NCBI GenBank assembly: GCA_963666055.2
Contig: CAXWPH010000002.1
Coordinates: 344,266-408,265 of the forward strand
Direction: 5' to 3'
Length of the DNA: 64,000 nt
DNA from: Acidobacteriota bacterium
GTDB taxonomy: Bacteria; Acidobacteriota; UBA890; WLXD01
Position 1 is the first letter of the stretch. Every line of letters begins with the position of its first letter. The notes beneath the pieces are model-generated. The model ran no database searches and was not told the origin of the DNA. It was given only the letters and a program-made list of their open reading frames with translations. Below are positions 9,750-42,173 of this stretch, piece after piece. Position numbers and translations under genes: made by a program.

Positions 9750-10328
9750 TCATGTTGTCCGTTCGAGTTTGTAGTTCCCCTTATTGACGCCGGGAATTTC
9801 GAAATCGTCGTAACGGATCCAGGTGTTCCGGAGCGAACCGTGCTCGTTTTTGCACCGCGCCTTGAACTTGTAGTCCGTGTAAACGACGACGATCGAATGC
9901 CAACCGCTCGCGGACTTACCTTGGACCTTTCGGAATCTCCATCGGCGATCGCCGGCGCGGATATGCGACCGGCAGCGCGCCGTGTGAGATTTTTCGTGGT
10001 CGCTTAGGTGCTCGTATTCCTTGTTCGCTCGCGGCGCTCGCGGCGCGACGCCCGGAGTCGGAACCAGACGGATGAACGGATGCGGAGCCGGCTTCGAGTC
10101 GGTCCCGTACGCGCCGAGCTCCATCGCGGCGGCTTCGACCGTCGCGATCCGAGCGCCGTATTCCTTCTGGCACGCGAACACGACCATGTCGTCGACGGTC
10201 GTATCGTCCGCGACGGCGAGCACACGGAGCCCGCGAAGAAGCGCCGGCGCGAGTGTTAGTTGGCGCGGTTCCGGGGTTTCGTCGTCCATGCGTCTTCCCT
10301 CCGTTCGGTTTGTTTGCTTATCGACCAT
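9750..10328 (-). CDS. Hypothetical protein
   Basis: ORF in the satellite operon; plausible starts MVDKQ or MDDET (GGAGG upstream). Confidence 0.55.
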   Translation of the reverse strand: MVDKQTNRTEGRRMDDETPEPRQLTLAPALLRGLRVLAVADDTTVDDMVVFACQKEYGARIATVEAAAMELGAYGTDSKPAPHPFIRLVPTPGVAPRAPRANKEYEHLSDHEKSHTARCRSHIRAGDRRWRFRKVQGKSASGWHSIVVVYTDYKFKARCKNEHGSLRNTWIRYDDFEIPGVNKGNYKLERTT

Positions 10329-10566
10329 GATTCGCCAGCGGATTATCGGGCGGCCACTCTTCGAGCTCGTCGCCAGCGTTTTCGGGTTCGTCGTCCGACC
10401 TCGACGCCTCGGCGGCGTCGACGATCGCCGCGACCAGGTCCGCGCGGCGGAACGCGGCGCCGACGAACTCGCGGAAGACAACGCCGGACGATAGACCCCG
10501 GACCCTCGCGATCCGCTGGAGCGTGAGTTCTTGCGTCGTGTCGAGTGCTATTCGTCGAATCATCAT
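10318..10566 (-). CDS. Small putative DNA-binding protein (ribbon-helix-helix-like)
   Basis: RRIALD..LTLQRIARVRGLSSGVVFREFV pattern; operon position. Confidence 0.45.
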   Translation of the reverse strand: MMIRRIALDTTQELTLQRIARVRGLSSGVVFREFVGAAFRRADLVAAIVDAAEASRSDDEPENAGDELEEWPPDNPLANHGR

Positions 10567-11035
10567 CTGCTAGTGCCCCCTAGAGGCGCCCGAAAAAAAC
10601 CGAATCGCTGGAGCCCTCGATTCCCCTCAAGAGAGATGCCGGCAGGAGAACCTTCCGCCCCCCCCTTTGTCGACGAGCACGACGTGAATGTTTCGATCGC
10701 CGCGTCGGCGGCGGCGGAAGTGAATTACTCATCGTTGCGCCATCCTTTCGCGCCGCCGTTGCGCCGGCATCGGCATTGATCGGGGTTGCGGCGCTCCGGC
10801 GAACCGCTCCGGAAACACGCCGCGATAGTTTTGTTCCATCGACCCTTGCAACGCTCGGACCGCGATCGCCGCGCCGAACTTCGCCAACATCGTCAGTTGC
10901 TTCCGCGCCCACGGCGCTTTCCGCGGCCAGCCGTTCGAACTCCGAAACAACAGCCACTCCGACCAGGCTTTCCGAAATTCCGGGGTCGCGAGCTCGGCCG
11001 GGAGCTCGACGTCAGCGGCGGTAGCCGCTCTCTTA

Positions 11036-11224
11036 TTCTTCCTTCTTCCTTCTTCCTTCTTCCTTCTTCCTTCTTCCTTCTTCCTTCTTCCTTCTTCCTT
11101 CTTCCTTCTTCCTTCTTCCTTCTTCCTTCTTCCTTCTTCCTTCTTCCTTCTTCCTTCTTCCTTCTTCCTTCTTCCTTCTTCCTTCTTCCTTCTTCCTTCT
11201 TCCTTCTTCCTTCTTCCTTCTTCC
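11036..11224. repeat. Simple sequence repeat (TTCTTCC)27
   Basis: 189 bp = 27 perfect units. Confidence 0.95.
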
Positions 11225-11230
11225 TTAGGG

Positions 11231-11286
11231 TGCCCTCGGTCGTGCCCTCGGTCTGCCCTCGGTCTGCCCTTGGTCTGCCCTCGACC
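11231..11286. repeat. Five 11-bp iteron-like repeats (TGCCCTCGGTC), putative replication origin
   Basis: Near-tandem copies at 11231, 11243, 11254, 11265, 11276 in the middle of the rep gene, as in lambdoid O-type origins. Confidence 0.75.
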
Positions 11287-11710
11287 GCGTCGCCACCCTG
11301 ATAAGTCGAGTATTTGCAGACAGTTATCAATAGACCGCGGTTTGCCCGATTTGCGCGCCGTAACATACCCGCGGTCTGAAGCTTTTTTGCGGCTCGACGG
11401 AGTTGTTTCACGGTCAATCCGGTATCGGCCGACATCGACGACCAGGCAGCGAAAAACTGTCCGGCGTCGAGCTCCAGGACGCGCCCAGCGACATCCCACG
11501 GCGTCGGCTGGTACGCCGCGCGCTCGATCGCATAGCGGAAGAAGAGGCCGGTCGCGACGTCGCCCCGTAGAATGGGGTTTTGGCCGAGCGACCGCCATAT
11601 CTTCACGAATCCGCAAGTCTTGACCGATGATCGCGCCTCCGAAGCGGACTGCATTGGCGCTTGTGGGACAGCCAAACGAGCGTGAGCGCGTCCCACCTTC
11701 GCGTACTTCC

Positions 11711-11908
11711 TCACGACGCCTGGCCCGGGCTTGTGAGCTGTTGGCGCAGATACACCTCGATCGCTTCTGTTGAGAATCTGCGGTAGTGACCCAGCTTGAA
11801 CGAGGGCAACTCGCCGGCTTCGGCCTTTTGATAGACGCAACTCACGGGCACAGCCAGGCGCTCCGCGACCTCCTGAACCGTCAAGAGCGGCGAAGCTGTC
11901 TGGGTCAT
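11711..11908 (-). CDS. Excisionase-like HTH protein
   Basis: LLTVQEVAERLAV..VYQKAEAGELPSFKLGHYRRF. Confidence 0.88.
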   Translation of the reverse strand: MTQTASPLLTVQEVAERLAVPVSCVYQKAEAGELPSFKLGHYRRFSTEAIEVYLRQQLTSPGQAS

Positions 11909-12147
11909 CGGCGCGCCCCGCAGACGGCCCGTAGCAGGTCAAGATAGGCAACCGCCCGAGCGCCCCCAGGAAGTCGCTGCCCGGTTTCCCAACGGGAGAC
12001 CGCGGCCGGGGACACACCCAAGACGTCGGCCACATCGGCCTGGGTGAGGCCAGCCTGCTCCCGCAAAGCACGGGCTGCCGCCGGTGCCGATCGGATCTGC
12101 TGGCGAGCCCGGGCTCGCTCAATAACAACAGTGGCTTTCTTGGTCAT
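11905..12147 (-). CDS. Cro-like XRE HTH regulator
   Basis: RALREQAGLTQADVADVLGVSPAAVSRWETGQRLP; divergent from the repressor. Confidence 0.88.
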   Translation of the reverse strand: MTKKATVVIERARARQQIRSAPAAARALREQAGLTQADVADVLGVSPAAVSRWETGQRLPGGARAVAYLDLLRAVCGARR

Positions 12148-12242
12148 CGTATTCGAGTACCTCTTTGATTGGCACACCAACCTGTTACCATGCAACGTAC
12201 ACTTTTGTACCGATCCACACAATTGTTGGAGTGTTCCTGTTT

Positions 12243-12839
12243 ATGGCACATGAGAAAGAACGGTCACCTGAGGAGCGCCTGCACGCCAGAGCGCAGGCAA
12301 TCGCCGCCGCAGTCAGACATGCCAGGAAACGGCGCGGCTGGTCAGTTCGCCGGCTCGCCAAGGCAGCCGGGGTGTCTCCGTCGAGTCTCTCCAGAATCGA
12401 GAATCCTGACTCCGCGGGGTCGCCGAAGGTGGAGACGATGGAGACCCTCGCGGAGGCGCTGGACTGCCCGCTCTGCGAGCTTGTTGGAGAGCCAGCGGTG
12501 ATCGAGTACCGCGGCCTGGGAGACTGGCCAGCAGCGCTTCAAGACGTGCTGGCCGAACGGGGTGGCTTTGTAACGGTGGCCGAGAGGGCTTTCCTAGAGG
12601 ATCGCCTGGAGACGATCGTCCCGGACCCTCTGCGGGTCGCGCAGGGGTGCCCAGAAGTGCAGGACGATCCTCAGTACTGGCGATCACAGCTGAAGCTGTT
12701 CCGCGACTCCCGGGTGTGGCGGATCGTCGAGAACCTGGTGACCGACGGCTGGCGGCTCGACCATGACGTCCAGGTGGGTCTCGACCTGATCGTGCGAGCA
12801 ACGATCGGACGAATCGGAGAGGAGGAGGCAAGCCGATGA
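12243..12839 (+). CDS. CI/Stl-like XRE repressor
   Basis: ARKRRGWSVRRLAKAAGVSPSSLSRIEN..PKVETMETLAEALDC; stop overlaps the int start (ATGA). Confidence 0.85.
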   Translation: MAHEKERSPEERLHARAQAIAAAVRHARKRRGWSVRRLAKAAGVSPSSLSRIENPDSAGSPKVETMETLAEALDCPLCELVGEPAVIEYRGLGDWPAALQDVLAERGGFVTVAERAFLEDRLETIVPDPLRVAQGCPEVQDDPQYWRSQLKLFRDSRVWRIVENLVTDGWRLDHDVQVGLDLIVRATIGRIGEEEASR

Positions 12840-13999
12840 GAGGCACCATTCGCAAACGCACTCTCGACGACGGCACCCGCCGCTACGATGTCCGCTACCG
12901 AGCTGCGGGCCGGCAACGCACCAAGACCTTCCGCCGACGCAAGGATGCCGACCGCTTCCTCGCCAAGCAAATGACGGCGGTTCATGACGGCTCGTATGTG
13001 GAGATGCAGCCCACGCGAATGGGAGATGTCTTCGACTCCTGGCTCGATGACGTCGACACGCGCGTCATGGAACGCAACCTCAAGGCGTCCACCGCAGCGA
13101 CGTATCGCTCCGGCATCAACAAGCACCTCCTCCCCGCCTTCGGCGACTTCCGCAGCGACCAACTAACTCCGGCCGTCATGAGCAAGTGGCGCCGGTCCTT
13201 GGCCACGAGAATCGCCGCCGGCACGATGGCCCGCAAGACGTTCAACAACATCTTCAACCAGCTGCACGTAATACTGGAGTGGGCACGTCTCCCTGCACAG
13301 AGCTTTCTCGCCCATGATCCATTGATCGGGCAGAAGCGCTTCAAGCGCGAACGCCGCGAGGCCGAGTTCTGCGAGGACGACGACATCACGGCCCTGCTCA
13401 AGGCCGCCGCCGACGCGCCGGAAGGAAACGCCATCATTCACCTGGGCCTGTTCGCGGGGCTCCGCCGCGGTGAGATATTCGCTCTCCAGTGGCGCGACAT
13501 CGAAGGCGGCAACGGTGAGGTCGGCGGCCGGATTCGAGTGCGCCGCTCCCTCTATGCGGGCGAAGTGACGACGCCGAAGACTGCGGCCGGTGAGCGCACG
13601 GTGGACGCCCCCCAGCGCGTCCTCGATGTACTGGCAGCACACAGGGCGACGTGCCCGTCGATTGGCCAGGGATTCATCTTCCGTACCCGCACCGGCGCCC
13701 CGATCGATCCGAGTTGGTGGTACAGGGAGACGTTCGTCGAGATTCGAAAGCGCGCGAAGCTGCGGCCGACCGTGAGCTTACATTCGTTGCGACACACGTA
13801 CGCGTCGCTGCTCATCCGGCAAGGCGAGAATCCGAAGTACGTCAGCCGCCAACTCGGGCACGCCTCGACATCGTTCACGATGGACGTTTACGGGCACTGC
13901 TTCGAGACGACCAGCACCGAGGCGATGCAACGACTCAACTGCATCATCCCCGAACCGATGCTCCCGGAGTTGCGCGTCGTCGAGGCGCGTGGCGCCTGA
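12836..13999 (+). CDS. int: Tyrosine integrase, intact
   Basis: GLRRGE (R), TPKT (K), HSLRH, LGHAS, DVYGH (Y); N-terminal arm-binding region. Confidence 0.95.
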   Translation: MRGTIRKRTLDDGTRRYDVRYRAAGRQRTKTFRRRKDADRFLAKQMTAVHDGSYVEMQPTRMGDVFDSWLDDVDTRVMERNLKASTAATYRSGINKHLLPAFGDFRSDQLTPAVMSKWRRSLATRIAAGTMARKTFNNIFNQLHVILEWARLPAQSFLAHDPLIGQKRFKRERREAEFCEDDDITALLKAAADAPEGNAIIHLGLFAGLRRGEIFALQWRDIEGGNGEVGGRIRVRRSLYAGEVTTPKTAAGERTVDAPQRVLDVLAAHRATCPSIGQGFIFRTRTGAPIDPSWWYRETFVEIRKRAKLRPTVSLHSLRHTYASLLIRQGENPKYVSRQLGHASTSFTMDVYGHCFETTSTEAMQRLNCIIPEPMLPELRVVEARGA

Positions 14000-14146
14000 T
14001 CTATGCCACGTTTATGCCACCAAATGAGGAAGAACAGCACGAATCAGCTCGAAATGAATTCGCATCCCGTTCGCTGTAAGCTGTTGATTCTACGAATCTT
14101 GTAGAGCGATCCGGATTGAGCCGTAATGAGCCGAGAACGACCTCGA

Positions 14147-14203
14147 TGGGTTCAGGACCTAGTGGGGGCAACCCCGTGGAGGTTCAAGTCCTCTCTTGGG
14201 CAC
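14147..14203 (+). other. 3' half of tRNA-Leu(CAG), att core duplication
   Basis: Anticodon loop TTCAGGA, long variable arm GGGGCAACCCC, T-arm GGAGGTTCAAGTCCTCT, acceptor CTTGGGCA; 5' half missing; arm repeats TATGCCACGTTTATGCCAC lie just after int. Confidence 0.85.
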
Positions 14204-14888
14204 TTGATGTAACCTGTTGACAGATAACGAGTTGCGGGAGGGAATCGACTGGCGCGGCCAGGTTGCCTTTCCGCGTTTCAGGCCAGAAAGTAACGAACAG
14301 GTAACGGGACGCGTGTGTCCCGGCAGCGTAGCTCCAAACTGGAGCATCGCTCCTACTCCCACCGGGCCGCCCCAATCACCCCGAGTTGGAACCGGATACG
14401 AGAGGAACTCCGGGGGCTGGATCGGCTGCTCGCCTGATTCGGAGGGGCGGCTGAGCGCGCTACGGGCCCGTCGGCACGACCGCTTCAGCTCGTCGAACCA
14501 GTTGGTGACCAGCGTCAGAGCGCCGCTGCTGCTCTGGCTGGCGGATCTGATGGATGCGCACATGCGCAGCGCCGACGTGACCCTGAACGAAGCGCGGCGG
14601 GCGATCGAGCACACGGCATGAACGCGGAGGCGGAAGTAGGTTCTAGACCTTCCGCTGGCTCCAACTTTCCCTTGTCCGCAACACCCCTATTGAGATAAGA
14701 CTTCTCGCCTAGGGGGGAGAGGCCGAAAACACAGCCTCATCTTCAGACGAGCACGGGCTAAGGAGGGAAACTCGGATGTTCTCGCCCATACCCCACCGAC
14801 CCATGCGCTACTGCCTCGTTCTCATAGCTGTCTTGTCGAGCTCCTCCGCCGGTGACCTGAGTTCCTCGACCACTGCGCAAGGGGCTTC

Positions 14889-17540: not shown

Positions 17541-17599
17541 GCCGCCCCACCCCCTCCACCGTTGCAGCCGGACTGGTTCGACGAGCTGGAGCGGCTCGT

Positions 17600-17752
17600 C
17601 GAACCAGTTGGTGACGAACGTCACATAGCCGCTGTTGCCCTTGATGGCCACCTTGCGGCCCAGGCGCGTGTCCTGCGCCAGGTAGACCTCTCCCATGCCA
17701 CCCGCGCCGAGCTGCTCGGTGATCTCGTAGGGGCCTAGTTTGGTGCCGATCA
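17600..17752 (-). pseudogene. Collapsed kinase gene: N-terminus joined almost directly to the C-terminal motif
   Basis: [53 protein letters not shown]. Confidence 0.8.
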
Positions 17753-18172
17753 TCCTCTTCAACTCACTGGATGTAGCCAAGTGCCCGAAGAGACCGTAGC
17801 TGCTCAGGGGTCAGTGGCGAATCCTCGCCCGGCGTGAAGTACTCTCCCCGTCCTCTGTCGCCTCCAGCCGGATACGCACTCGGCCGCGCTTGTCGCGCAG
17901 TTCCAGGGTTTCATTTACCATCGTTCCAGCCCTCGTAGGGGTTAGAGCCCGCCTCGGGTTCCTGCCAAGTGGTATCGCGGCGGGCTCGTCTGTTTATGGG
18001 GACATCTCAGTCGCTTGGCTGATCTCCTTTTCTCTTCGCCCGTCGGCGGCCGTTCTTGCTAGCCGTCTTCTTTGCTATCATCGTTGCGACTCTCTTTCTC
18101 TCCAGACTGGGGGCTGTTGGGGCCGACGGTTCCTTTTCCTCGATGGATGTAGCCGCCCGGCCCCTTCTTTTG
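17704..18172 (-). repeat. 469 bp inverted repeat, copy 1
   Basis: Reverse complement of 41631-42099; identical translated ORF segments in the track. Confidence 0.92.
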
Positions 18173-18189
18173 TGTCTGGGGTGACTGGT

Positions 18190-18360
18190 TCTCAGTCGCT
18201 TGATGGGCCTCCTTTGCTCTGCTGTCGGGGTGCGCTCAATACGCGCCATAGCCTGACGCGCTGCGAAGATGCCTAGCGGGCTTGGCGATCGCTGGCCGGA
18301 CAACCAGTTTTGAACCGTGCTCGGGTTGACGCCGATCGCTACCGCGATCATCGCCAAACA
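18190..18360 (-). pseudogene. Cro/XRE-like HTH fragment
   Basis: IAVAIGVNPSTVQNWLSGQRSPSP. Confidence 0.55.
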
Positions 18361-18459
18361 CCAGCAGCAGGCCGGCGGGTCATCGGCGGATCGATCGCAC
18401 AATGGAGGCCCACGAACGCGGCACTACCCGGTTGGGGTGCGACGGGTCTAGGATGGGTG

Positions 18460-18570
18460 GTTACCTCTCGGCGCGGGACGCGCCTGAGAGCCAGCAACCC
18501 GCCGCTAGCGGAAGAGCACTCAGACTGTCAGATGATGCCCCTGGCGGCGATGGTCCCGCGCTGAGGGGCC
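18460..18570 (+). ncRNA. Candidate structured RNA, unit 1
   Basis: TAGGAT at 18449; 18464-18479 pairs 16/16 (WC or GU) with 18553-18568; inner stem CGCCGCTAG/CTGGCGGCG. Confidence 0.6.
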
Positions 18571-18708
18571 TCGCTTGTAGCCGCGCTTGGATCCGGTGCC
18601 CCTTCACGGCTGCGGCGCGTCCCGTCCCATGACCCCGACCACCTACCGAGTCCTCCAGTGAGAGGCCGAGCCGCCACCAAGCCGCGGCCTATCGCCTACC
18701 CCCGCTGC

Positions 18709-19014
18709 ATGTTCGGCACCTACCTCGGCGAGTTGGTCGACGCACACCCTACCTCAAGACCCAGGCTAGCCAAGCGAATCGGCGTGTCTCCGGGGAACCT
18801 CAGCAACTACCGCCACGGCCGCTACCTCCCGCCGGACCGCAAGGCTATCGGCGTGATCGCTCGAGTCCTTGCACCGACCAGGGCAAAGCAAGCCGCAGTC
18901 CGAGCCGAGCTCACGCGCCGCTGGTTCGCCGATCTGCTTGATGCGCACCTACGCGGGGGCGGCGTGTCGCTGGATGAGGCGCGGTTGGCAATCCGAGATC
19001 TGGCGGGGAACTGA
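18709..19014 (+). CDS. XRE-like HTH protein, copy 1
   Basis: SRPRLAKRIGVSPGNLSNYRHGRYLPP; near-identical paralog at 21091. Confidence 0.8.
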   Translation: MFGTYLGELVDAHPTSRPRLAKRIGVSPGNLSNYRHGRYLPPDRKAIGVIARVLAPTRAKQAAVRAELTRRWFADLLDAHLRGGGVSLDEARLAIRDLAGN

Positions 19015-19180
19015 CGTCACGCCGGCGGAGGCGCGGCGGGCGATCGAGGATACGGCGGGGGTGCGGAGGCGTAGGCAGAGGAAAAGCCAGGAGGCCGCCC
19101 GCCACAGCCTCAGGAACATCGCGGCGAAGTCAGAGTTTGCTAGGCACTACCCGGTTGGGGTGCGGTGATTCTAAGATGAT

Positions 19181-19293
19181 GTTGCCTCTTAGCGTGGGAT
19201 GCTACGTCACCCGCCGCTGGCGGGCACGCGAGCGTGCGCATTGCTCCCCGGCTCCGCGATCACAGCGGCGACGGTGTTTCGCGCTGGGGGGCC
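19181..19293 (+). ncRNA. Candidate structured RNA, unit 2
   Basis: TAAGAT at 19172; 19184-19202 pairs 19/19 (many GU) with 19274-19292. Confidence 0.6.
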
Positions 19294-19384
19294 TCGTATC
19301 TAGCCGTGTCCGAGTTGCTCCGTGCCCCCCCCCCCCCCCCCCCCCCCGCTGTAGCCTAGTCGCCCCCGTTGCGACTAGGATGGT

Positions 19385-19482
19385 GTTGCCTCTCGGCGCG
19401 GGACAAAGTCGCTCGCAACGACCGCCGTTAGCAGGCTTCCCGAGAGCCTGCACCTCTCGCAGGTCAATTAGCGGCGGGTGTC
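19385..19482 (+). ncRNA. Candidate structured RNA, unit 3 (3' arm truncated)
   Basis: TAGGAT at 19376; 5' arm GCCTCTCGGCGCGGGAC; inner stem CCGCCGTTAG/TTAGCGGCGG; breaks off after TGTC. Confidence 0.5.
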
Positions 19483-19524
19483 ATTACGGCCCCACTTGGA
19501 AACGCAAAGTAGAGGAGGGGCGTG

Positions 19525-19791
19525 ATGCCGTTCACCAAACAGCAATATGAAGCCGCCATCGAGAAAATGGAAGCCACCATCGACCGCCTACGCGACGAGG
19601 CGCGGGAGGCAGTGAGCAAATTAGCCGGCGTCACGATGGCCCGCGACGTGGATATCGGCCTGCTGGAAGCATGCACCGAGAAGGTTGAGGCGCTAGTGCG
19701 GGCGGTGCGGGCAAGCGAGGATATTCACGCCAGGCTCAAACATGCTATCGACGGCGCCCTCGCCGCCCGACAAGAGAACGGTACTAAGTGA
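19525..19791 (+). CDS. Hypothetical coiled-coil phage-like protein
   Basis: GAGGAGG RBS; followed by an overlapping xis-like scrap (MTDPKSEQLWTAHDAAEY). Confidence 0.55.
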   Translation: MPFTKQQYEAAIEKMEATIDRLRDEAREAVSKLAGVTMARDVDIGLLEACTEKVEALVRAVRASEDIHARLKHAIDGALAARQENGTK

Positions 19792-19957
19792 CTGATCCGA
19801 AGAGCGAGCAACTGTGGACGGCCCACGACGCAGCCGAATATCCGAAGCCGCCTCCTCCTCCTCTTCCTCCTCCACCTCCGCCGGCGCCGCCCACTCGGCG
19901 ATGGCATGCGACTACTTCGACCACTACCAGAAATAGGGAAAGCCGCAACTTTGAAGG

Positions 19958-20155
19958 TCAAACACCTTCAAGCGGTGAACGACTGAAGGGGGTCACGGCC
20001 CCGCCCGCCTGTCCGCCGACGTTGTCAGCAATGCGTTCGACTGCCTTGACGAGGCGCGTGGCTAGCCCGATTAGGTAGATGAATAGGCCGATCCAGATCA
20101 GCCCGAACAGCAAAGGGAACAGTCCCATCGCAGCCATCATCGGCATGTCCATCAT
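19958..20155 (-). CDS. Small single-TM membrane protein
   Basis: GGAGG RBS; hydrophobic run followed by RLVKAVERIAD. Confidence 0.7.
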   Translation of the reverse strand: MMDMPMMAAMGLFPLLFGLIWIGLFIYLIGLATRLVKAVERIADNVGGQAGGAVTPFSRSPLEGV

Positions 20156-20717
20156 GTCGCTACCTCCGTAGGGATTAGTGATTGACGGCCTTCCTCAGTG
20201 GACGGTTACGTTGTTCCTGGCGTTTTGCCAGCTTCAGTCGCTGCTCGCCCCCATGGCTTGCCTCCCTCGTTCACTCGCCAGCGCGTTTCTTGCTTAGTTC
20301 CGACCTCAGCCGACCCCCGTCCTCTGTCGCCTCTAACCGGATACGGACTCGGCCTTCCTTGTCGCGCAGTTCTTGTATGCCATCGCTTTTGGTAGCCGTT
20401 CTCTTTGCCATCCTTACGCGACTCCCTCCTGGGGTCGTGGGGGCCGACGGCTGATTGTCTTCCAGGACCTATTAGCCACACGGCCCCCTTCTTATGTCTC
20501 GGTGACACCGTCCGCCACCCTGGGGCGCTGATCAGAAGCGACCGAATAGCCAGCGAGGCTGCGGTGGCTGCGACGCGTCCCGGCGGGCAAGCGGTGGGTA
20601 GTGATGAGCGCAGACTCATTTCATTCCCGAACCAGCGACCGGCGATCTATATTGGCCGAGACTGATCGACCATGATGCCTACCACCTACCGAGTCCCCGA
20701 GTGAGAGGCCGCCGCGC

Positions 20718-21044
20718 ATGAGCAAGCCGGGATTCGTCGACGGACGGCACTACGCGACCTACGTGGTGGAGGTTCGTCGCCTCAAGCGGGTGGGCGACCT
20801 CGATGGCGCGAAGGAGCTTCTCCTGCGCCTAGTGGACGCCACAGAGGCCGAGGCATCCGCCCGAGGCGAAAGCTGGGTTGCTCGGTACTACGAGCAGCTT
20901 GCGATCATCTACCGGAAGAAGAAGCAGCCAGCCGACGAGCTCGCGATCCTCGAGCGGTACGAACGACAAGCGAAAGCCCCTGGGACCGTTCCAGAGAGGC
21001 TGGCTAATCGCCTGGCCGGCCTGCGACCCAAGGCGAACCAATGA
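20718..21044 (+). CDS. Helical TPR-like protein, copy 1
   Basis: GRHYATYV..LKR.G..AKELLLRLVDATE..YYEQLAIIYRK..ILERY; paralog at 24018. Confidence 0.8.
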   Translation: MSKPGFVDGRHYATYVVEVRRLKRVGDLDGAKELLLRLVDATEAEASARGESWVARYYEQLAIIYRKKKQPADELAILERYERQAKAPGTVPERLANRLAGLRPKANQ

Positions 21045-21090
21045 AAGGCCGCCGCAGCGCCAACCCCCGCCTGTCGCCTACCCCCGCTGC

Positions 21091-21408
21091 ATGTTCGGCT
21101 CCTACCTGGGCGAGTTGATCGACGCGCACCCTACCTCAAGACCCAAGCTGTCCGAGCGCATCGGCGTGTCTCCGGGGAACCTCAGCAACTACCGCCACGG
21201 CCGCTACCTCCCGCCGGACCGCAAAGCCATCGGCGTGATCGCGCGCGTCCTCGCGCCGACCAGGGCAGAGCAGGTGGAGATCCGCGCCGAGCTCACGCGC
21301 CGCTGGATCGCCGACCTGCTTGATGCGCACCTGCGCGGGGGTGGCGTGTCGCTGGATGAGGCGCGATTGGCGATCCGCGATCTAGCGGGGGCACGGAGGC
21401 GTAGGTAG
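21091..21408 (+). CDS. XRE-like HTH protein, copy 2
   Basis: Near-identical to 18709-19014. Confidence 0.8.
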   Translation: MFGSYLGELIDAHPTSRPKLSERIGVSPGNLSNYRHGRYLPPDRKAIGVIARVLAPTRAEQVEIRAELTRRWIADLLDAHLRGGGVSLDEARLAIRDLAGARRRR

Positions 21409-21511
21409 AGGAAGAGCCAGGAGCCCGCCCGCCACAGCCTCAGGAACATGCGCGGCGAAGTCGGAGTTTGCTAGGCACTACCCGGTTGGGGTGCGGTGAT
21501 TCTAAGATGAT

Positions 21512-21623
21512 GTTGCCTCTTAGCGTGGGACGCTACGTAACCCGCCGCTGGCGGGCACGTGAGCGTCGGCATTGCTCCCGGCTCCGCGATCACAGCGGCG
21601 AGGGTGTCTCGCGCTGGGGGGCC
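21512..21623 (+). ncRNA. Candidate structured RNA, unit 4
   Basis: TAAGAT at 21503; 21515-21533 pairs with 21604-21622; differences from unit 2 keep the pairing. Confidence 0.6.
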
Positions 21624-21699
21624 TCGTATCTAGCCGTGTCCGAGTTGCCCCGTGCTCCCCCCGCTGTAGCCTAGTCGCCCCCGTTGCGACTAGGATGAG

Positions 21700-21821
21700 G
21701 TTACCCCTCGGCGCGGGACGAGGAGCGTAGCGCTACGAGCCGCCGCTAGCGGGCTGGCCAGCATGCACATGACGGCCTGGTTCCGAGATCACAGCGGCTG
21801 CAGCGTCCCGCGTTGGGGGGC
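21700..21821 (+). ncRNA. Candidate structured RNA, unit 5
   Basis: TAGGAT at 21691; 21705-21720 pairs 16/16 with 21804-21819. Confidence 0.6.
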
Positions 21822-21922
21822 CTTGCATGTGGTGGGCGCACGGTGCTCACGGTGTTCAGAGTTCACCGGTGGAACGGAGAGAAATCAGCGGCGAATTCGC
21901 ACCTCTGGCATAGATCACACGC

Positions 21923-23645
21923 ATGGCAATCAACCACCTGTACTACGGCGACAACCTGGATATCCTGCGGCTGCATGTAGCGGATGAGAGCGTGGATCTC
22001 GTGTATCTCGTGTATCTCGATCCGCCGTTCAACAGCGACCAGAACTACAACGTCCTCTTTGCGGACCGGTCGGGTGAGAAAGCGCCTGCGCAGATTCAAG
22101 CGTTCGAGGACACATGGCGTTGGGATATGGCTGCCGCCGCGGCCTATGAGGAAACGGTAGAGATAGGCGGCCAGGTATCGCGTGTCATGCAGGCATTCCG
22201 CACATTCCTGGGCGAGAACGACTTGCTTGCCTACCTAGCGATGATGGCGCCGCGTCTCGTCGAGCTTCATCGCGTTCTCAAGTGCACAGGCGGCCTCTAC
22301 CTACATTGTGATCCAACGGCGAGTCACTACCTGAAGATCATCCTGGATGCCGTCTTCGAACCCAAACGCTTTTGCACGGAGATCGTCTGGAAGCGGAGCG
22401 GCGCTCATAGCGACACGAAACAGGGAAGCAAGAAGCACGGCCACATCCACGACGTAATTCTCTTCTACACAAAGGGCGACGGCTGGACTTGGAACGAGGT
22501 CTATACCCCCCTATGAGGAGTCCTACATAGGTCGGGACTACAAGCTCGTCGACGATGACGGCAGACGGTTCCGACGCGACAACCTGACGGCGGCGCGCCC
22601 TGGCGGGGATACCGAGTACGAATGGCGGGCGAAGAAGCGAGAGGACGTGCGCGAACGCTGGGTCGCTGACCTCGACGACGAGTACAAGAATCCGAAGCCG
22701 GGCTGGGAGTACGTTGGTGTGCCGCCGTACAAGGGCCGCTACTGGGCGTACTCCAAAGACAACATGCGTAAGTTCGCGCGAGAGGGCCGTCTGCGACACA
22801 CGTATGGCGGGATGCCCGAGTACAAGCGATACCTCGACGAGATGCCGGGTGTACCGCTACAGGATATCTGGACCGACATCACGCCAATCATCTCTGGGCA
22901 GTCCGAGCGTCTCGGGTACCCAACACAGAAACCGGAAGCGCTGCTGGACCGCATCATCACGTCTAGCAGCAACGAAGGTGACCTCGTCCTCGACCCGTTC
23001 TGCGGGTGCGGCACTACGGTCGCTGTTGCTCAGCGACTGAAGCGGCGCTGGATCGGCATAGACATCACACACCTAGCTGTATCGCTGATGAAGCACCGGC
23101 TCCGAGACTCCTTCGGCGACAACGTAGCGAATGAGTACGAGGTGATAGGAGAGCCTGTTGCGGTGTCCGGTGCTCAGGAACTAGCACACGATGATCCTTA
23201 TCAGTTCCAATGGTGGGCATTGGGGCTGGTAGGTGCGCGGCCGGTCGAGCAAAAAAAAGGGCGCCGACAAAGGCATCGACGGACGAATCTATTTCCACGA
23301 CGACGGGAGAAAAACGAAGCAGGTCATCCTCTCCGTGAAGGCCGGCAAGAGCAGCGTCGCACATCTTCGCGACCTCCGCGGTGTCATTGACCGTGAGAGC
23401 GCCGAGATTGGCGTCTGATCTCCATGCAGGAGCCAACGGCTCCGATGCGGAAGGAGGCGGCCTCAGCCGGCTTCTACGAGTCTCCCTGGGGCAAGCACCC
23501 GCGCCTACAACTCCTCACCGTGGGCGAGCTGCTCGAGGGCAAGGAGATCGACCGGCCACGGTCCCGAGCGGACGCGACCTTCAAGAAGGCGCCTAGGCAG
23601 GGGCCGGCTGAACCTGCGACCGGCGATCTGTATGGCCGAGGCTGA
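21923..23645 (+). pseudogene. N6/N4 DNA methyltransferase with C-terminal Mrr-like restriction endonuclease domain, frameshifted
   Basis: LYYGDNL, YLDPPFNS, GYPTQKPEALL, VLDPFCGCGTT, then FQWWAL..GADKGIDG..SVKAG; breaks near 22510 (C run), 23250 (A8) and 23415. Confidence 0.88.
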
Positions 23646-24017
23646 CCCCCTCGCAAATCGGCCGGCTGGAAGTAGCTACTCTGACGGACGGCTACATTCG
23701 CGGCCCAATGTCGCCAGCGATTGTCAATTCACTTCCACTGTGTGCGAATCGCTAGCTGGCCGTCATTACCCAGCGCTGACAATTCTTTACGGCTCAGTCC
23801 CTGGTTGGCGGCGGCTGCGGTCGATAGCTTTCTCGCGTCGTTCGTGTTCGATGCTTGAGCCGACCGATGCCTGACAGCAGGCAGTGCCCCTCCCCTCGCA
23901 AATCTCCCGGCTGCGCGCTTTCTAGTAGTAGAAGAAAATTGTTCCGCTTGGCCACGGCTGCGCGCAAGCTCAAACGTGCCGCAGGTCGCGCCCTGCGCGC
24001 GAAGGTAGTGCCCAACA

Positions 24018-24353
24018 ATGTGCACCCCCGGCTTCATCGATGGCCGGCACTACTCAACCTACGTCCTGGAGTATCGCCGTCTGAAGCGAGAGGGCGAGCT
24101 TGATCGAACAGAAAAGCTCCTGATCCGAATCGTCGGCGCAACGGAGGACGAGGCCACGGCCAACGGCTGGGATGATGTAGGGCCCACTTACTACGAGCAG
24201 CTGGCCATCATCTACCGGGAAAAGAAGCAGCTGGCCGAAGAGATCAAGATACTCGAGCGGTACGAGCAACAAGCAAGAGCCTCGCACACTCCTTCCGCGA
24301 GACTCGCCGAGCGCCTAGCAGAGCTGCGCGCCAAAGCCGGTAAGAACCCATGA
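24018..24353 (+). CDS. Helical TPR-like protein, copy 2
   Basis: Diverged paralog of 20718-21044. Confidence 0.75.
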   Translation: MCTPGFIDGRHYSTYVLEYRRLKREGELDRTEKLLIRIVGATEDEATANGWDDVGPTYYEQLAIIYREKKQLAEEIKILERYEQQARASHTPSARLAERLAELRAKAGKNP

Positions 24354-24398
24354 CCCCGACCACCTACCGAGTCCTCTAGCCCGAGAGCACAAAGCCAC

Positions 24399-24677
24399 GT
24401 GACCAACGACGAAGCGGACCAAGAGCCCGAGCGCCTTCGGTACACGAACGACATGGCTCCGGTTCTGCTCGCGGAGGTCGTGCATCTGGGAGCTCGCCTG
24501 AACGCGCTGATCAACCGGCTGCGCGAGCAGGGACATCTTTCAGAAGCGGATATGGAATCGCTGCTGGAAGACGAAACGAGAATCCGCAATCAACGAAGTG
24601 CTGAGTTTCTGGCCCTCGTGTCCGCCTATGACTCCGCGGAACATATGCGAATCGCCAAGGAAGAACATGATGCGTAG
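24399..24677 (+). CDS. Hypothetical protein
   Basis: 92 aa ORF co-oriented with its neighbours. Confidence 0.5.
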   Translation: MTNDEADQEPERLRYTNDMAPVLLAEVVHLGARLNALINRLREQGHLSEADMESLLEDETRIRNQRSAEFLALVSAYDSAEHMRIAKEEHDA

Positions 24678-24753
24678 CCGGCTTGCCCTGGTGATCATCG
24701 TCGTTCTGTTAGCGCTTGCCGTGGCAGTCATCGTCGTTCGAATCATCTACTGA
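24667..24753 (+). CDS. 28 aa hydrophobic peptide
   Basis: MMRSRLALVIIVVLLALAVAVIVVRIIY*; AAGGAAG upstream. Confidence 0.45.
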   Translation: MMRSRLALVIIVVLLALAVAVIVVRIIY

Positions 24754-28939: not shown

Positions 28940-29360
28940 CCTACTCGCCTCCATCGTCAGGGGTCGCGGCGATCGACCGGGCGGTTGCGGGACGCTATCC
29001 GTGGGCGGGACGCGGCGCCGCCCTGCGAGAATCCTCCCAGATATAGTGTCGCCTGAAGCGTATCGCCGGAGCGTGCGAGATCCAACGGAGGCACCGTCAG
29101 GAGCCTCCCCAGCGTCAACCGGCCTGGCCCCCAATTCGGGAAGGGTACCATCCCGTGCGGAACCATCCCGTGCGGGGTGGTTCCGCGCGTTAGGGGCCGT
29201 CCTGGGGATATGCACCAGCGCTCTACCCCACCGCCTGACGGTCGCGCTCGTCAGCCGTGAGTGGTTACCCCGATACCCGCCCTGGCCAACCCAAGAGCGT
29301 GCCGCTACGGACGAGCGAAATCGAAGGACGCTAGGGCTTGTCGAGTCTCGGCTGTCGGCG

Positions 29361-30520
29361 CTACGGGTCCGTCGGCACGAGCCGCTTCAGCTCGTCGAAC
29401 CAGTTCGTGACGAACGTCACATGGTCGCTGTCGCTCTGGCTGCTCTGGCCGGTGTCGGGGAACATCACGAACCGCTGACCGTCGCCCGTCACGTCGTAGT
29501 CGGCAAAAGCGCCCGCACCGACGATGGTTATTCCATCAGGCCCACCAAGAAAACTCCCCTCGAAAAGCTGCTCGCCCATGCTGTAAGTGAAGGAATCACC
29601 TTCCTTCTTTACAGCAACCGCCATGATCCCTGTATCGGAGCGGTAGAACAGCTCCCGACCGTCGGCTGACCAGCTGGGCTGGCCGCCACCGCTGCTGGAG
29701 AGCTGCCACTTGCCCGGCCTAGGAGGATAGGGCCGGGCATAGACTTCCTTGCTTCCCGACTCGAAAAGAGTCGTACGCTATCCAGCGACCGTCCGGTGAG
29801 AAAGCCGACCACTCGTCGGCAGCATCGGTGCTCACAAAGACTTGCGGCTCCCTATCCTCCTCAAGCGGCAACACCAAAATGTCCCAGCCGGTCTGTAGTT
29901 GGAACTGGCTGTATACCAGGAACCTGCCATCCGCAGACCACGACAACGGGTACTGCGCCCTGTCGCTCTCTATCAGCCGCTCGACAGTTCCCGAGCCGTC
30001 GGCACGAGTCCGATAGATGTTCTGTGTTCCGTCGCAGTTCGACAGGAATGCGAGAAACTGCCCGTCGGGCGACCAAACAGGTTAGCTGTCGACCGCTTCA
30101 TCAAACGTCAGCCTTGTCGGCACACCCCGCTGGATGTCATAGATCCACACGTCAGCGTTTTCGTTGCGCAAGGCTTTTGCCACGGCCAGCCGTGTGCCGT
30201 CCGGAGACACCCGAGGAGAACTGTAGAAGCCAGGCTCTTCCCACAGCGGTGTCGTGTTGCCCTGCCGGTCTACCCATACGACGGGATACCCCTGAGCAAC
30301 GGCCTCGCTCAGATAGGCCAGTGTTCCTGTACTTGAGAAGCTGAACTGTCCGATATCCAATCGCCCAAAGGTGGCAAGCCCCTGCACGATGGATACCGCC
30401 GAGCCCTTCACTTCCAGCTCTCCCAGATCAAACGCGACGGCAAACAGGGTGCCCGCTCGTGATACACGAGATGCCCCGTAGGTACGTAGCGTCCCTGTCC
30501 ACCCTGCTGCACGACCCGTC
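29361..30520 (-). pseudogene. Kinase-associated TolB-like beta-propeller, degraded C-terminal half
   Basis: WVDRQG, PRVSPDGTRLAV, SWSADGRFL, FSPDGRWIAY, VTNWFDELKRLVPTDP* spread over several frames. Confidence 0.85.
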
Positions 30521-38534: not shown

Positions 38535-41195
38535 ATGGAACCCGGCACCAAACTAGGCCCCTACGAGATCCTCGGCCGGCTCGGCGCCGGGGGAATGGGC
38601 GAGGTCTATCGCGCCCGTGACCGCAACCTCGAACGCCACGTCGCCATCAAGGTACTGCCCGCGGCGTTCGCCGTGGACTCGGAGCGGATGGCCCGCTTCG
38701 CCCGGGAGGCCAAGCTGCTCGCCTCGTTGGAGCACCCGAATATCGCCGTCGTCTACGGCCTGGAGGAATGGCAGGGTACCCGCTACCTGGCACAGGAGCT
38801 GATCGACGGCGAGAGCCTGGCGCAGCGCATCAAGCGTGGGCGACTCGGGGTCGATGAGGCGCTCGAGATCTGCCGGCAGATCGCCGCGGCTCTCGAGGCA
38901 GCGCACGCCAAGTCGATCGTGCACCGCGACCTCAAGCCAGCCAACGTCATGCTGACGTCCGAGGGGCGCGCCAAGGTGCTCGACTTCGGCCTCGCCAAGC
39001 CGATCGTCGGAGATCAAGAAGGGGACCCGGAGGTCGATCTCGGGGAGTCACCAACGCTGACGACGACGCGGGTGAGAGAAGGGGTCGTCATGGGGACAGC
39101 CGCCTACATGAGCCCGCGCCAGGCGCGCCGACATCTGGGCGTTCGGGTGTGTCCTCTACGAGGCCCTCACCGGGGCTTGCGCGTTCTCCGGCGACACTCT
39201 GCTCGACATCCTCGCCGCGGTCGTGCGCGCCGAGCCCGATTGGAGTGCCCTGCCGGAACAGACGCCGTCGCGCATCCGGCTGCTGCTGAAGCGTTGCTTG
39301 CAGAAAAAGCGGCAGCGGCGACTGCAGCACATCGGTGATGCCCGTATCGAGATCGACGAGGCGCTCACCGACCCCGACGGCCACGCCGTCCCATCCTCGT
39401 CGGGGCACCGGCCCCGGCTTCGCGCCGTCCGCTGTGGTATCTCGGCATCGTCGCCGTTGCCATGACCGCCCTGGCGCTGTGGAGCCTGGCGACCCGCCCC
39501 GGTGCAGCGCCCCCGGGACGGGTGACGCGAACCTCCATCGTGCTGGCGCCCGGACAGTACATCAACGTGCAACCGTCCGCCTCGCTGGCGCTCGCGAGGG
39601 ACGGCAAGCACCTCGTCTACGGCGCTGTCTCCGACGAGGGTCAGCACCTCTACCTGAGGAGCATCGACAGTTTCGAGACCACGCGGATCCCGGGGAGCGA
39701 GGGAGGTAGAAGCCCGTTCTTCTCGCCGGACGGGATCTGGATCGGCTTCTTCAGCGGCGACTTCAAGATGAAGAAGGTGCTGGTGGCGGGGGGCGGGCTG
39801 CTGCCGATCTGCGACGTCCCGGTCGGCGACAGCGGCGCGGTGTGGCTGGAGGACAATCGCATCGTCTACGGGCTGGCGTCGACCTCGACCGGTCTGATGA
39901 GCGTGTCTGCGGACGGCGGCATCCCCGTGGACCTGACGACTCTCGACCTGGAGGCCGGAGAGCTGCGGCACGGGCGGCCGCATCCTCTACCCGGCGGGCG
40001 CCACCTGCTCTTCACGGTCTTCACGTCGGAGGCTGCCAGGGTCGAGGTCCTGTCGCTAGAGACCGGCGAGCGCAAGGAGATCCTGCAGGGGACCGAGGGA
40101 GCGCAGTATGTGGAGGGCGGCTACCTGGCGTACGGACAGTCGGGGTCGTTGCTCGTCGTGCCGTTCGACCGGGAGGGACTGGACACGACGGACTCTCCGA
40201 CTCGTATCCTCGACGGCGTCTACATGGACTCGACCAACGAGCGCGCCTACTTCGTCCTGGCTTCGGACGGCACCCTCGTCTACCTGCCGGCCGCCGCAGG
40301 TTCCTACGAGACCACTCTGGTCTGGGTCGACCGTCAGGGCCGGGAGGAACCGACCGAGGTCGAGCCGGGACAATATGCGCACCCGCAGATCTCCCCCGAT
40401 GGCACGCGCGTCGCGGTCAACAGCAACAGCCACATCTGGATCTTCGACCTGGATCGCGGCGGTAGCGGCACCCGCTTGACTCGCGAGGGCTACAACTCGA
40501 TGCCGGTCTGGTCGCCGGACGGAGAGAGGATCGCTTTCTCGTCGGCCCGTGTCGGGCCCGCGGCCGTGTACGCGAAGCGTGTCGACGGCGTCGACGAGGC
40601 CGAGCTGTTGATCGAACACGACCACGCCGCATGGCCTCGCTCCTGGTCCGCGGATGGCAACTCGCTGGCCTTCTACGAGCTCAATCCGGCCGCCGGGGCG
40701 GGACGCGACGTCTTTGCGTGGAGCTTCCGCGAGGAGGATAAGATCCCGGTCGTCACCAGCCCGGCAAACGAGCGCTCGCCGATATTCTCCCCCGATGCTC
40801 GATGGATCGCCTACACGTCGGACGAGTCGGGTCGCGACGAGGTCTACGTACGCTCCTTCGTCGGGGTCGCCGGTCAGTGGAAGATCTCGACCGAGGGCGG
40901 GCGCGAGCCGCTCTGGTCGCCGGATGGCATAGAGATCTTCTACCGGAACGGCAAGCGCGTCATGGCGGTGCGGGTGAGCACGACGTCGGGGTTCAGTCCC
41001 GAGGCCCCCGTCCGTCTCTTCGAGGGCGAGTACGCCATCGAGAACCAGGCGCACAACCAGTTCTACGCCATCGCACCAGACGGCATGCGGTTCCTGATGA
41101 TCCGCGAGAGCCAGCCGCCCTCGAGCCGCACGCGAATGCACGTGGTGACGAACTGGGTCGAGGAGTTGAGGCAGCGCGTGCCGACCGGACAGTAG
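38535..41195 (+). pseudogene. Hanks-type Ser/Thr kinase - TM - TolB-like beta-propeller, frameshifted
   Basis: [35 protein letters not shown]; small deletion and frameshift near 39125 (ADIWAFG in another frame) and another near 39420; propeller ORF 39462-41195. Confidence 0.9.
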
Positions 41196-41434: not shown

Positions 41435-41622
41435 ATGGACCCCGGCACCAAACTAGGCCCTACGAAATCTCCGAGCAGCTCGGTGCTGGCGGCATGGGAG
41501 AGGTGTACCTGGCGCAGGACACGCGCCTGGGCCGCAAGGTGGCGATCAAGGTGCTGCCCGCCGAGTTCGCCTCTGACCCCGAGCGCCTCGCCCGGTTCGA
41601 GCAGGAAGCCCGCGCTGCCGCC
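41435..41622 (+). pseudogene. Kinase N-terminal fragment
   Basis: [39 protein letters not shown], cut off at the inverted repeat. Confidence 0.85.
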
Positions 41623-41630
41623 ATGACAAC

Positions 41631-42099
41631 CAAAAGAAGGGGCCGGGCGGCTACATCCATCGAGGAAAAGGAACCGTCGGCCCCAACAGCCCCCAGTCTG
41701 GAGAGAAAGAGAGTCGCAACGATGATAGCAAAGAAGACGGCTAGCAAGAACGGCCGCCGACGGGCGAAGAGAAAAGGAGATCAGCCAAGCGACTGAGATG
41801 TCCCCATAAACAGACGAGCCCGCCGCGATACCACTTGGCAGGAACCCGAGGCGGGCTCTAACCCCTACGAGGGCTGGAACGATGGTAAATGAAACCCTGG
41901 AACTGCGCGACAAGCGCGGCCGAGTGCGTATCCGGCTGGAGGCGACAGAGGACGGGGAGAGTACTTCACGCCGGGCGAGGATTCGCCACTGACCCCTGAG
42001 CAGCTACGGTCTCTTCGGGCACTTGGCTACATCCAGTGAGTTGAAGAGGATGATCGGCACCAAACTAGGCCCCTACGAGATCACCGAGCAGCTCGGCGC
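41631..42099 (+). repeat. 469 bp inverted repeat, copy 2
   Basis: Reverse complement of 17704-18172; ends in a kinase start ([17 protein letters not shown]). Confidence 0.92.
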
Positions 42100-42173
42100 T
42101 GGCGGCATGGGCCAGGTGTATCGAGCACGCCGCCATAGTTTTCAGGAATCTGGCGCGGCAAACGGGTACGGGC

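Follow-up and report, generated by a model that had tools for sequence, protein, structure and literature searches.

An uncatalogued, dispersed element of about 110 bases in two sister species of Acidobacteriota, and its possible role as a promoter and RNA-leader cassette

What are the five repeated, G-U-rich units that lie between small genes at 18420 to 21821 of a 64,000-nucleotide stretch of an Acidobacteriota genome (hereafter the window), and what could they do? A preliminary description took them for an array of individually promoted small RNAs partnered with an XRE-like protein, possibly immunity, antisense or guide RNAs. The five units are genuine copies of an uncatalogued element of about 110 bases. 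The array itself is not special to the window. Its units are members of a dispersed family with 14 copies in the host genome (G000), 12 of them distinct, and 8 in a congener, the sister species G002, scattered at low copy number across the accessory-gene islands of both.

The units in the window and their relatives

All features of the window given here are on the plus strand, except where noted. Unit 1 has an upstream palindromic motif at the -35 position (18420..18440), a candidate regulator site or hairpin, a -10-like box (18449..18454) and a predicted RNA of 107 nt (18463..18569) with closing helix 18464-79/18553-68. Its 3' tail and second hairpin (18570..18617), common to five other copies, stand before a repeated short leader ORF and then the cargo gene; XRE-family HTH gene a, of 118 aa, lies at 18658..19014. 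Unit 2 has its upstream motif and box at 19143..19177 (box 19172-77) and a predicted RNA of 109 nt at 19184..19292 (closing helix 19184-202/19274-92). A tandem linker (19293..19381), with a run of 23 C (19325-47), the palindrome of unit 3 (19355-79) and its -10-like box (19376-81), leads into unit 3 (19388..19480), which is truncated as first described, keeping the 5' arm and inner stem and lacking the 3' arm of the closing helix. Immediately 3' of it is an 89-aa cargo ORF without family (19522..19791), also found behind a unit in the sister species, followed by a 65-aa hydrophobic cargo ORF on the minus strand (19958..20155) that recurs in these islands. The TPR-like cargo gene (108 aa, 20718..21044) has 11 matches in the host genome, 5 in the sister species and none in three other congeners. 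In XRE-family HTH gene b (21041..21408), the body is in frame from 21091, but not with the ATG at 21041. Unit 4 has its motif and box at 21474..21508 (box 21503-08) and a predicted RNA of 108 nt at 21515..21622 (closing helix 21515-33/21604-22), and a second tandem linker (21623..21696), holding the palindrome (21670-94) and box (21691-96) of unit 5, joins it to the predicted 119-nt RNA of that unit (21703..21821; closing helix 21705-20/21804-19). Behind unit 5 is an N6/N4 DNA methyltransferase gene split across several frames (21923..23645). The TAGGAT or TAAGAT boxes (18449, 19172, 19376, 21503 and 21691), the upstream 21-mer common to units 1, 2 and 4 and the palindrome common to units 3 and 5 are all where they had been reported. 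Note that the five units are not independent, because units 2 and 4 are copies within a duplication of about 790 bp, 82% identical overall and 93% between the units.

The stretch was recovered in contigs of other public DNA runs, one of which may be where the sample came from: X2 covers 18106-18619 with no difference, X7 spans 21308-24711 with two, and X11 has an exact piece of 151 nt. One RNA run gave a single 40-nt piece, which lies outside the units and is no evidence either way.

How far does the element extend? It is present in 2 of 101 genomes searched, namely the host and its sister species, and in a second sample of the phylum, overlapping the first, the sister species alone matched (1 of 149). 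A relaxed covariance model search of five relatives reached a best E of 0.25. Exact-pattern scans of genome and metagenome contigs, from which close genomes are possibly absent, gave no match, and three pattern matches in viral contigs were dropped at 12 bits or less under the covariance model. There is no similar DNA among 50,697 phage records or among plasmid records, and no description was found in the literature covered, to which most subscription journals do not belong. With Rfam 15, nothing fell on any unit of the window better than E 1.6, and the units of 12 further loci had no match.

Several specific candidates were also rejected. As to IS110 bridge or seek RNA, IS110 occurs in both genomes, but the model finds nothing at five IS110 loci (best E 2.2). 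No TROVE gene for a Y RNA/Ro60 system occurs in either genome, the true SRP RNA is at C15:2007641 while no Rfam match falls on the units, and RF00013 (6S RNA) finds nothing in three genomes. HDV-like ribozyme, attC, sigma54 and ECF promoter were rejected by inspecting the alignment for their motifs. An 11-mer shared with kinase coding DNA was set aside as well: among 100 kinase starts, 5 have it, and 9% of random GC-rich 17-mers have some 11-mer in common with that set. Nor are the units taken as coding, since their side segments, 12-24 nt long, break the frame.

Fold, strand and promoter-like box

Do the units fold as an RNA of the plus strand? The closing stems proposed for units 1, 2, 4 and 5 pair without a mismatch, and 19 of their 70 pairs are G-U (14 Watson-Crick and 2 G-U in unit 1, 11 and 8 in unit 2, 13 and 6 in unit 4, 13 and 3 in unit 5). 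Of the side hairpins assigned to units 1, 3 and 5, that of unit 1 has only 2 bp in the MFE structure. Across the family, a copy is laid out as a TAnnAT box, 6-8 bases and a rod starting with a 16-17-bp helix, and the rod is 104-119 nt long in 18 of 19 copies, which is tight although the loops are unalignable. The closing helix is 95.9% paired, against 38-54% for the whole structure when slid, and a second conserved inner helix is 89% paired. Both helices conserve sequence as well as pairing; identity is 0.75-0.86 in the constant stems and 0.33-0.38 in the variable loops. G-U states occur in 10 of the 16 closing-helix columns and A-C states in 2, and of 19 copies, 13 have the helix at a mean p>0.5 when folded as sense RNA, compared with 5 as DNA and 3 as antisense RNA. 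GC skew reveals no apparent orientation bias of the copies. Pairing, G-U bias and sense-strand folding thus agree with a constant helical scaffold that carries variable loops and folds as plus-strand RNA. The word "covarying" needs qualification: pairing is kept, mostly by one-sided changes from Watson-Crick to G-U, and significant two-sided covariation is not supported, two-sided change being thin, at 4 of 25 pairs across 19 copies.

The thin covariation and the restriction to two close species would also suit a decayed miniature inverted-repeat element (Correia- or ERIC-like), or a repeat amplified passively along with its islands that itself does nothing as RNA. Many copies have a left-end CTAG and a partly complementary right-end CAT(C/G)TAG, and the size, about 110-150 bp, is near that of the Correia repeat-enclosed element (about 105-155 bp), which also has an end-associated promoter and whose inverted ends, in RNA, form a fold to which RNase III binds (as described in the available text of PMC2649163). 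The same text gives that element TA insertion with target duplication, more than a hundred copies and a conserved core. In our element the core varies and conserved sequence runs past the ends, for about 30 bp beyond the would-be left end in every copy; a search of the host genome, the sole one covered, revealed no empty site, and no terminal inverted repeats with target duplication and unrelated flanks were seen. Close matches of the upstream motif in the host genome are at units, while looser ones with two mismatches lie elsewhere without the joined tail. The copies are few and confined to islands, and the 10:2 bias of G-U over A-C is strand-specific. We regard a decayed miniature element or passive repeat as quite unlikely.

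Could the fold act as single-stranded DNA instead, as a promoter or origin of the Frpo, ssi or sso kind active in conjugative transfer? Multi-copy hairpins before small genes, a methyltransferase among them, do recall plasmid leading regions (as presented in the available text of PMC9849209). However, the strand that folds has the sense of the downstream genes and is not their template, the closing helix appears in only the 5 of 19 copies noted above under DNA energies, the -10 box is unpaired in the DNA folds (mean p 0.07), and there is no -35 box. A search of the host genome for TrwC, the one relaxase family covered genome-wide, found none, nor was a relaxase seen among 77 neighbouring ORFs. 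We judge a single-strand promoter or origin very improbable.

As for the box, its T, A, A and T are invariant in all 19 aligned copies while the middle positions vary (12 TAGGAT, 2 TAAGAT, 2 TAAAAT, one TACGAT, one TACAAT and one shortened). A spacer of 6-8 nt separates the box from the helix, which begins with a purine in 19 of 19; by comparison, TAnnAT stands at equal distance from a random base at 0.12% of sites. The earlier proposal of a -10 box is upheld in this respect, a -10-like box standing at transcription-start distance from the helix base. The promoter is nevertheless unproven, because a TTG -35 or TG extension is found in none of 20 copies, compared with 14 of 28 TAnnnT boxes upstream of host tRNAs. 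No U-tract terminator follows the units of the window.

Variable loops and their possible targets

If the stems are constant, what are the loops for? One explanation is that each unit yields a stand-alone RNA of the C4/CI type, for antisense or immunity, which is processed from an operon leader, acts in trans and pairs through its loops with the transcripts that related mobile elements make. The P4 CI RNA belongs with the C4-type RNAs as a comparable system. C4 of P1/P7 (RF01695) and the Acinetobacter Group 1 sRNAs are likewise multi-copy and borne on mobile elements, with paired ends, constant stems, variable loops and a place in the leader of a longer transcript, and 21 C4-like RNAs with a variable loop are a precedent in Acinetobacter (in the available text of PMC5320573, PMC12197685; the count from PMC5320573). 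The contrast between stem and loop identity fits this explanation, and so does the dissimilarity of tandem partners, which are as unlike as random pairs (48-59% identity versus a mean of 57%). Phage-satellite-like elements near several islands also count in its favour. On the other hand, the available text describes C4 as about 77 nt long, with cis targets, three stem-loops and a b' loop that is conserved, while our element is 104-119 nt, varies in both loop regions, and has no Rfam match and no flanking target. The RF01695 model found nothing in the two genomes, a weak test of uncertain sensitivity, since in none of 14 genomes did its control reach the cut-off. Flanking targets of the P4 CI/P1 C4 type, or guide targets, gained no support from complementarity: the loops match their own flanks as well as other loci (7.8 versus 7.7 nt), bipartite targets among 19 copies number 5 upstream and 3 downstream against 3.3 and 3.6 expected, and translation starts in the islands offer no better targets than background. 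On balance, antisense RNAs of this type seem rather unlikely.

Another explanation is that the rods are bound by a protein, as decoy, antitoxin or guide RNAs of an undescribed ribonucleoprotein, with a protein such as the XRE or TPR-like one binding the rod and each set of loops giving its own specificity. The tight length with unalignable loops and the double conservation of both helices speak for it. RNA, XRE and TPR-like genes also occur together in 2 of 5 congeners, the host counted, and a scan of IMG/VR with five side segments gave one of them a full match of 21 nt. That match, however, is one sequence in two contigs, in mRNA sense, and the other four scans were blank. Genome-wide loop matches of 11-16 nt are about what chance gives in 11.4 Mb, a comparison with no shuffled control. 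As the preliminary description had said of nucleases and reverse transcriptases, no linked nuclease, recombinase, reverse transcriptase or TROVE partner was found, and no single protein gene adjoins all copies. We judge this explanation unlikely, slightly more so than antisense RNAs. A bolder form would make the units individually promoted specificity RNAs, a constant rod read by a lineage-specific protein, with interchangeable loops that would be collected as unlike tandem pairs, traded between species and used in RNA-programmed immunity or as decoys against other mobile elements; this we consider fairly improbable. There is no sign so far of variable loops acting as guides.

Much as in retron ncRNA, short side hairpins and a longer one that varies lie within the closing helix, after which a G often comes. 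Might the units then be ncRNAs of the orphan retron or UG27 type, serving as templates for short hairpins of cDNA? UG27 systems do have variable ncRNA arrays (in the available text of bioRxiv 10.64898/2026.09.22.753630). But the host genome has no RVT_1 match, the two reverse transcriptases of the sister species have no tblastn match in it (E<=1) and no unit beside either, and UG27 motifs were not seen in the alignment. The chance of a retron or UG27 identity appears very small.

Cargo genes, recombination and the preferred reading

What, then, do the units adjoin? A same-strand ORF lies within 135 nt of 11 of 16 terminal units (by our own ORF caller), and the units are multi-copy intergenic elements that precede small orphan genes where the genome is variable. 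The pool of small accessory genes includes TPR-like, XRE and methyltransferase genes and an extra bS21. Of the 16 terminal units, five are without a same-strand gene close by, and four tandem pairs have no ORF between their unlike partners, which fits stand-alone RNAs better than leaders. A fixed XRE partner, as first suggested, is not seen, the adjacent XRE gene being absent at 10 of 20 distinct copies, and loci of distant XRE homologues have no unit. The XRE family and the RNA element share one common distribution. The nearest PDB neighbours of the XRE fold are XRE regulators such as ClgR and controller proteins of restriction-modification systems, at a non-significant best E of 0.015. Copies C8 and G2c have cores 97% identical, yet their upstream and downstream sequences differ. 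From such mosaic flanks, recombination at the helix arms may be inferred, while contigs of other runs show no joint across a unit that paralogues would not account for, and no clear excision joint.

The explanation that we favour, tentatively and at a little under an even chance, is a portable cassette of about 150 bp, a promoter and structured leader placed at the head of cargo genes and used as a point of recombination. Each unit would provide a promoter and then a folded RNA leader of about 110 nt before whichever small cargo gene comes next, with transcription probably starting at the purine at the base of the closing helix. The helix would close off the 5' end of the cargo mRNA and give RNase III, whose gene is present in both genomes, a double-stranded target, so that the mRNA would be stabilised or processed; a stable RNA of about 110 nt would be left behind. 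As no -35 box is present, the promoter would need a regulator; the candidate is the XRE protein, which shares the distribution of the element and would bind the upstream palindrome. The conserved arms would act as recombination points that reshuffle cargo genes, and the variation of the loops would reflect weak constraint rather than a role as guides. Copy number, distribution, box position, sense-strand G-U folding, tight length, variable loops and shuffled flanks are observed; against the cassette, the conserved inner helix exceeds the need of a plain stabilising hairpin.

Two known systems come near to such a cassette. PeSL cassettes of T4-like phages are multi-copy intergenic promoters with a stem-loop before small orphan genes in hyperplastic regions, where recombination between copies shuffles modules; they have consensus -35 and -10 boxes, AT-rich upstream sequence, a single terminator hairpin and an SD (all in the available text of PMC2839356). 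Our element has the -10 part only, with a two-helix rod of about 110 nt from the predicted +1, and its host is a bacterial chromosome. EGeRS1 and EGeRS2 of pLS20-family plasmids are also repeated regulatory sequences before small accessory operons, EGeRS1 structured and EGeRS2 under an element-encoded repressor, though the available text of PMC8708921 and PMC6294495 describes EGeRS1 as 400-750 bp with no promoter and EGeRS2 as a strong promoter with an RHH repressor. No conjugation genes were found here.

The weight of the finding is limited for now by its narrow range, two close species, and by transcription being predicted. Twenty natural variants with exact predicted starts make it testable by simple reporters. 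Should the loops carry specificity after all, the units would be a new RNA-programmed system. If the cassette reading is true, the element would be a chromosomal counterpart of the phage PeSL cassettes with a far more elaborate RNA leader, and it would explain how small accessory genes are switched on and reshuffled in this uncultured lineage.

Pairing and distribution of the units

All five units of the preliminary description are present in the window (about 18421-21830). Across the four complete ones the stems comprise 51 Watson-Crick and 19 G-U pairs, 70 in all, without a mismatch, and unit 3 is indeed truncated, its 3' arm being gone. A duplication of about 790 bp contains units 2 and 4 plus the XRE gene, a small XRE-family HTH gene, so the window offers about four independent variants. 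The stretch recurs almost letter for letter in contigs from other public DNA runs (one possibly the source sample), which rules out an assembly artefact; among the runs listed as carrying it, none is an RNA run. As anticipated, Rfam gave no match to the units (best hit in the window, E 1.6), nor to units at 12 other loci. A search for 6S RNA (RF00013) in this genome (G000), the sister species (G002) and another genome of the genus (G004) found no match.

Is the array peculiar to this place? The five units are real, but copies are dispersed through G000 and G002. An iterated profile found 14 full and two half copies in G000; segments more than 99% identical hold three of the 14, leaving 12 distinct. 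A covariance model was built from 19 copies, 11 from G000 and eight from G002, omitting unit 3 and two duplicates. With stricter filters and 31 candidates scored per genome, its search of 101 genomes returned 14 copies in G000 and eight in G002; the remaining 99 had none. In a second sample, overlapping the first, only G002 was positive (1/149). Phage and plasmid records yielded nothing, and pattern scans of metagenome and genome contigs no family copy. Over shared core-like stretches the two genomes are 88-99% identical.

Upstream of each copy lies a conserved palindromic motif of about 30 bp, of one of two types, followed by a TAnnAT box, 6-8 variable bases and a purine opening the 16-17-bp closing helix. 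Within this helix come a side segment that varies (12-24 nt), an inner helix of 8 bp and an apical part that also varies. Measured from purine to helix end, 18 of 19 copies span 104-119 nt and the remaining one 90. Between pairs of copies, identity averages 0.86/0.81 in the outer arms and 0.81/0.75 in the inner arms, 0.33 in the side segment and 0.38 in the apical part; the paired fraction is 95.9% in the outer and 89.3% in the inner helix. The claim that substitutions keep pairing stood only in part: two-sided change occurs in just 4 of 25 pairs, a count matched by 35 of 500 shuffles in a kind of test that kinship inflates, but one-sided change carries the real pairing signal, 10 of the 16 outer columns showing G-U states and two A-C, the bias originally reported. 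Folding favours a + strand RNA: of 19 copies, 13 form the outer helix when folded as sense RNA with 45-nt flanks, five as DNA and three as antisense RNA, and mean z-scores are -3.3 for the sense and -1.4 for the other strand. Beside these folds we give a single-strand promoter hardly any credence. For the inner helix, only 8 of the 19 single folds give p above 0.5, in part because of alignment offsets.

T, A, A and T of the box are fixed in 19/19 copies, its middle varying, and it stands from the helix base at the distance of a transcription start, where its background frequency is 0.12%. It speaks against a promoter that a TTG -35 or TG extension was sought in 20 copies and found in none; ahead of host tRNA genes, 14 of 28 TAnnnT boxes have one. 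The palindromic motif occupies the -35 place. We infer that the candidate promoter would depend on a regulator.

Tests of trans-acting and mobile alternatives

Four tandem unit pairs have no ORF between partners, whose internal identity (48-59%) is no higher than that of random pairs (57%). Such pairs, and gene-less copies, would fit a trans-acting RNA of antisense or immunity type, and multi-copy C4 RNAs (compare PMC5320573) look somewhat alike. The searches lent this reading no support: complementarity to a copy's own flanks averages 7.8 nt versus 7.7 at other loci, C4-like bipartite sites in the flanks of 19 copies number five upstream and three downstream (expected 3.3 and 3.6), and a C4 model, whose control was weak, found no match. 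We regard it as unlikely, if still a serious candidate. The same pairs and gene-less copies would fit a protein-binding decoy or guide, which we think quite unlikely; the longest genome-wide loop matches, 11-16 nt for 24 segments, do not support the guide targets once suggested. For 2 of 22 segments, an island translation start beat all 500 background starts, about chance given 88 island starts. Among five side segments scanned against IMG/VR, only the 21-nt side of unit 1 matched, by 21-nt identity in mRNA sense to one sequence in two contigs (L117:501-521, and L116); the ORF holding it is presumably nuclease-like, and the match is probably chance.

The lack of a reverse transcriptase noted near the units extends to the whole of G000, and a retron or UG27 RNA has next to no chance in our estimate. 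G002 has two Abi/UG-like reverse transcriptases (L057:1108-2241 and L058:961-2679). An IS110 bridge-type RNA was rejected, the units not being linked to IS110 ends; IS110 matches number 38 in G002 and one in G000. No TROVE gene was found in G000 or G002. No empty site was found in G000 for a MITE, and we hold a passive repeat or MITE to be decidedly improbable. The units fail a defining test of each known family checked, and a literature search, mostly outside subscription journals, found no description of the element.

Islands, cargo and neighbouring repeats

What lies around the copies? They are located in mosaic islands of small genes, and a Ser/Thr-kinase 5' end lies within 5 kb of 12 of 16 hits, which are not independent, versus 11.6% of random positions. 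Of 16 terminal units, 11 are followed within 135 nt by an ORF on the same strand, according to our own ORF caller. Four of these ORFs are TPR-like, two are an 89-aa ORF and two encode a membrane protein; the others are XRE, a methyltransferase and bS21. Flank types are shuffled; two 97%-identical cores differ in both upstream and downstream sequence. The XRE protein (118 aa; predicted structure, pLDDT 87) has just weak XRE-fold neighbours, and close copies occur in G000 and G002 only. A unit lies within about 1.1 kb downstream of 6 of 10 near-full XRE copies. The proposed partnership with XRE was not supported as a fixed one, 10 of 20 distinct units having no adjacent XRE gene. Among five congeners, the TPR-like gene is likewise confined to these two genomes. 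RNA, XRE and TPR-like genes thus appear to belong to a shared pool of cargo rather than to form an obligate pair.

Several further features were observed. An extra ribosomal protein bS21 gene lies directly 3' of a unit at L006:8501-8701 (G000:C15:2114533-2114691), with three bS21 matches in G000 and one in each of three congeners. A short leader ORF of about 8-10 codons (18627-18668, 20670-20711, 24348-24380) joins many cargo genes and has 15 copies genome-wide. The methyltransferase gene at 21923-23645 is broken up among several reading frames and carries a short duplication within it near 22000, reflecting either decay or long-read error. A second repeated hairpin, with constant stem and unrelated loop of about 21 nt (18119-18160 and 20440-20495, minus strand), sits upstream of small minus-strand ORFs. 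A phage-satellite-like element (9750-14400) comprises a replication protein gene with an EEGRRKK-coding tandem repeat (11036-11226), an excisionase, a Cro/CI-like pair and a tyrosine integrase; after it, by eye from ORF translations and integrase context, comes an apparent tRNA 3' fragment near 14370, and ARAGORN found no tRNA in the whole window. Kinase 5' ends form 100 repeats genome-wide, many of them fragments, with end fragments at 14448-14540, 17572-17748, 29349-29442, 38543-38652 and 41443-42120. A 490-bp inverted duplication, 99% identical (17683-18172 and 41631-42120), contains a kinase start together with small ORFs on the minus strand. Accessory islands are bounded, and their genes truncated, by kinase 5' and 3' end fragments, which suggests that these act as recombination ends.

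A proposed portable leader cassette

The reading we tentatively favour, at somewhat less than even chance, is a portable cassette of promoter plus structured leader. Transcription would begin at the base of the closing helix, which would seal the 5' end of the transcript and present a site for RNase III, whose gene is present; the helix would in this way govern the cargo mRNA, leaving a stable RNA. PeSL and EGeRS cassettes would be closest in mode of working, PeSL copies in T4-like phages recombining and swapping cargo according to PMC2839356. The family, a structured element with a narrow range, is uncatalogued, and its function we only infer: its conserved arms would let copies recombine, swapping cargo.
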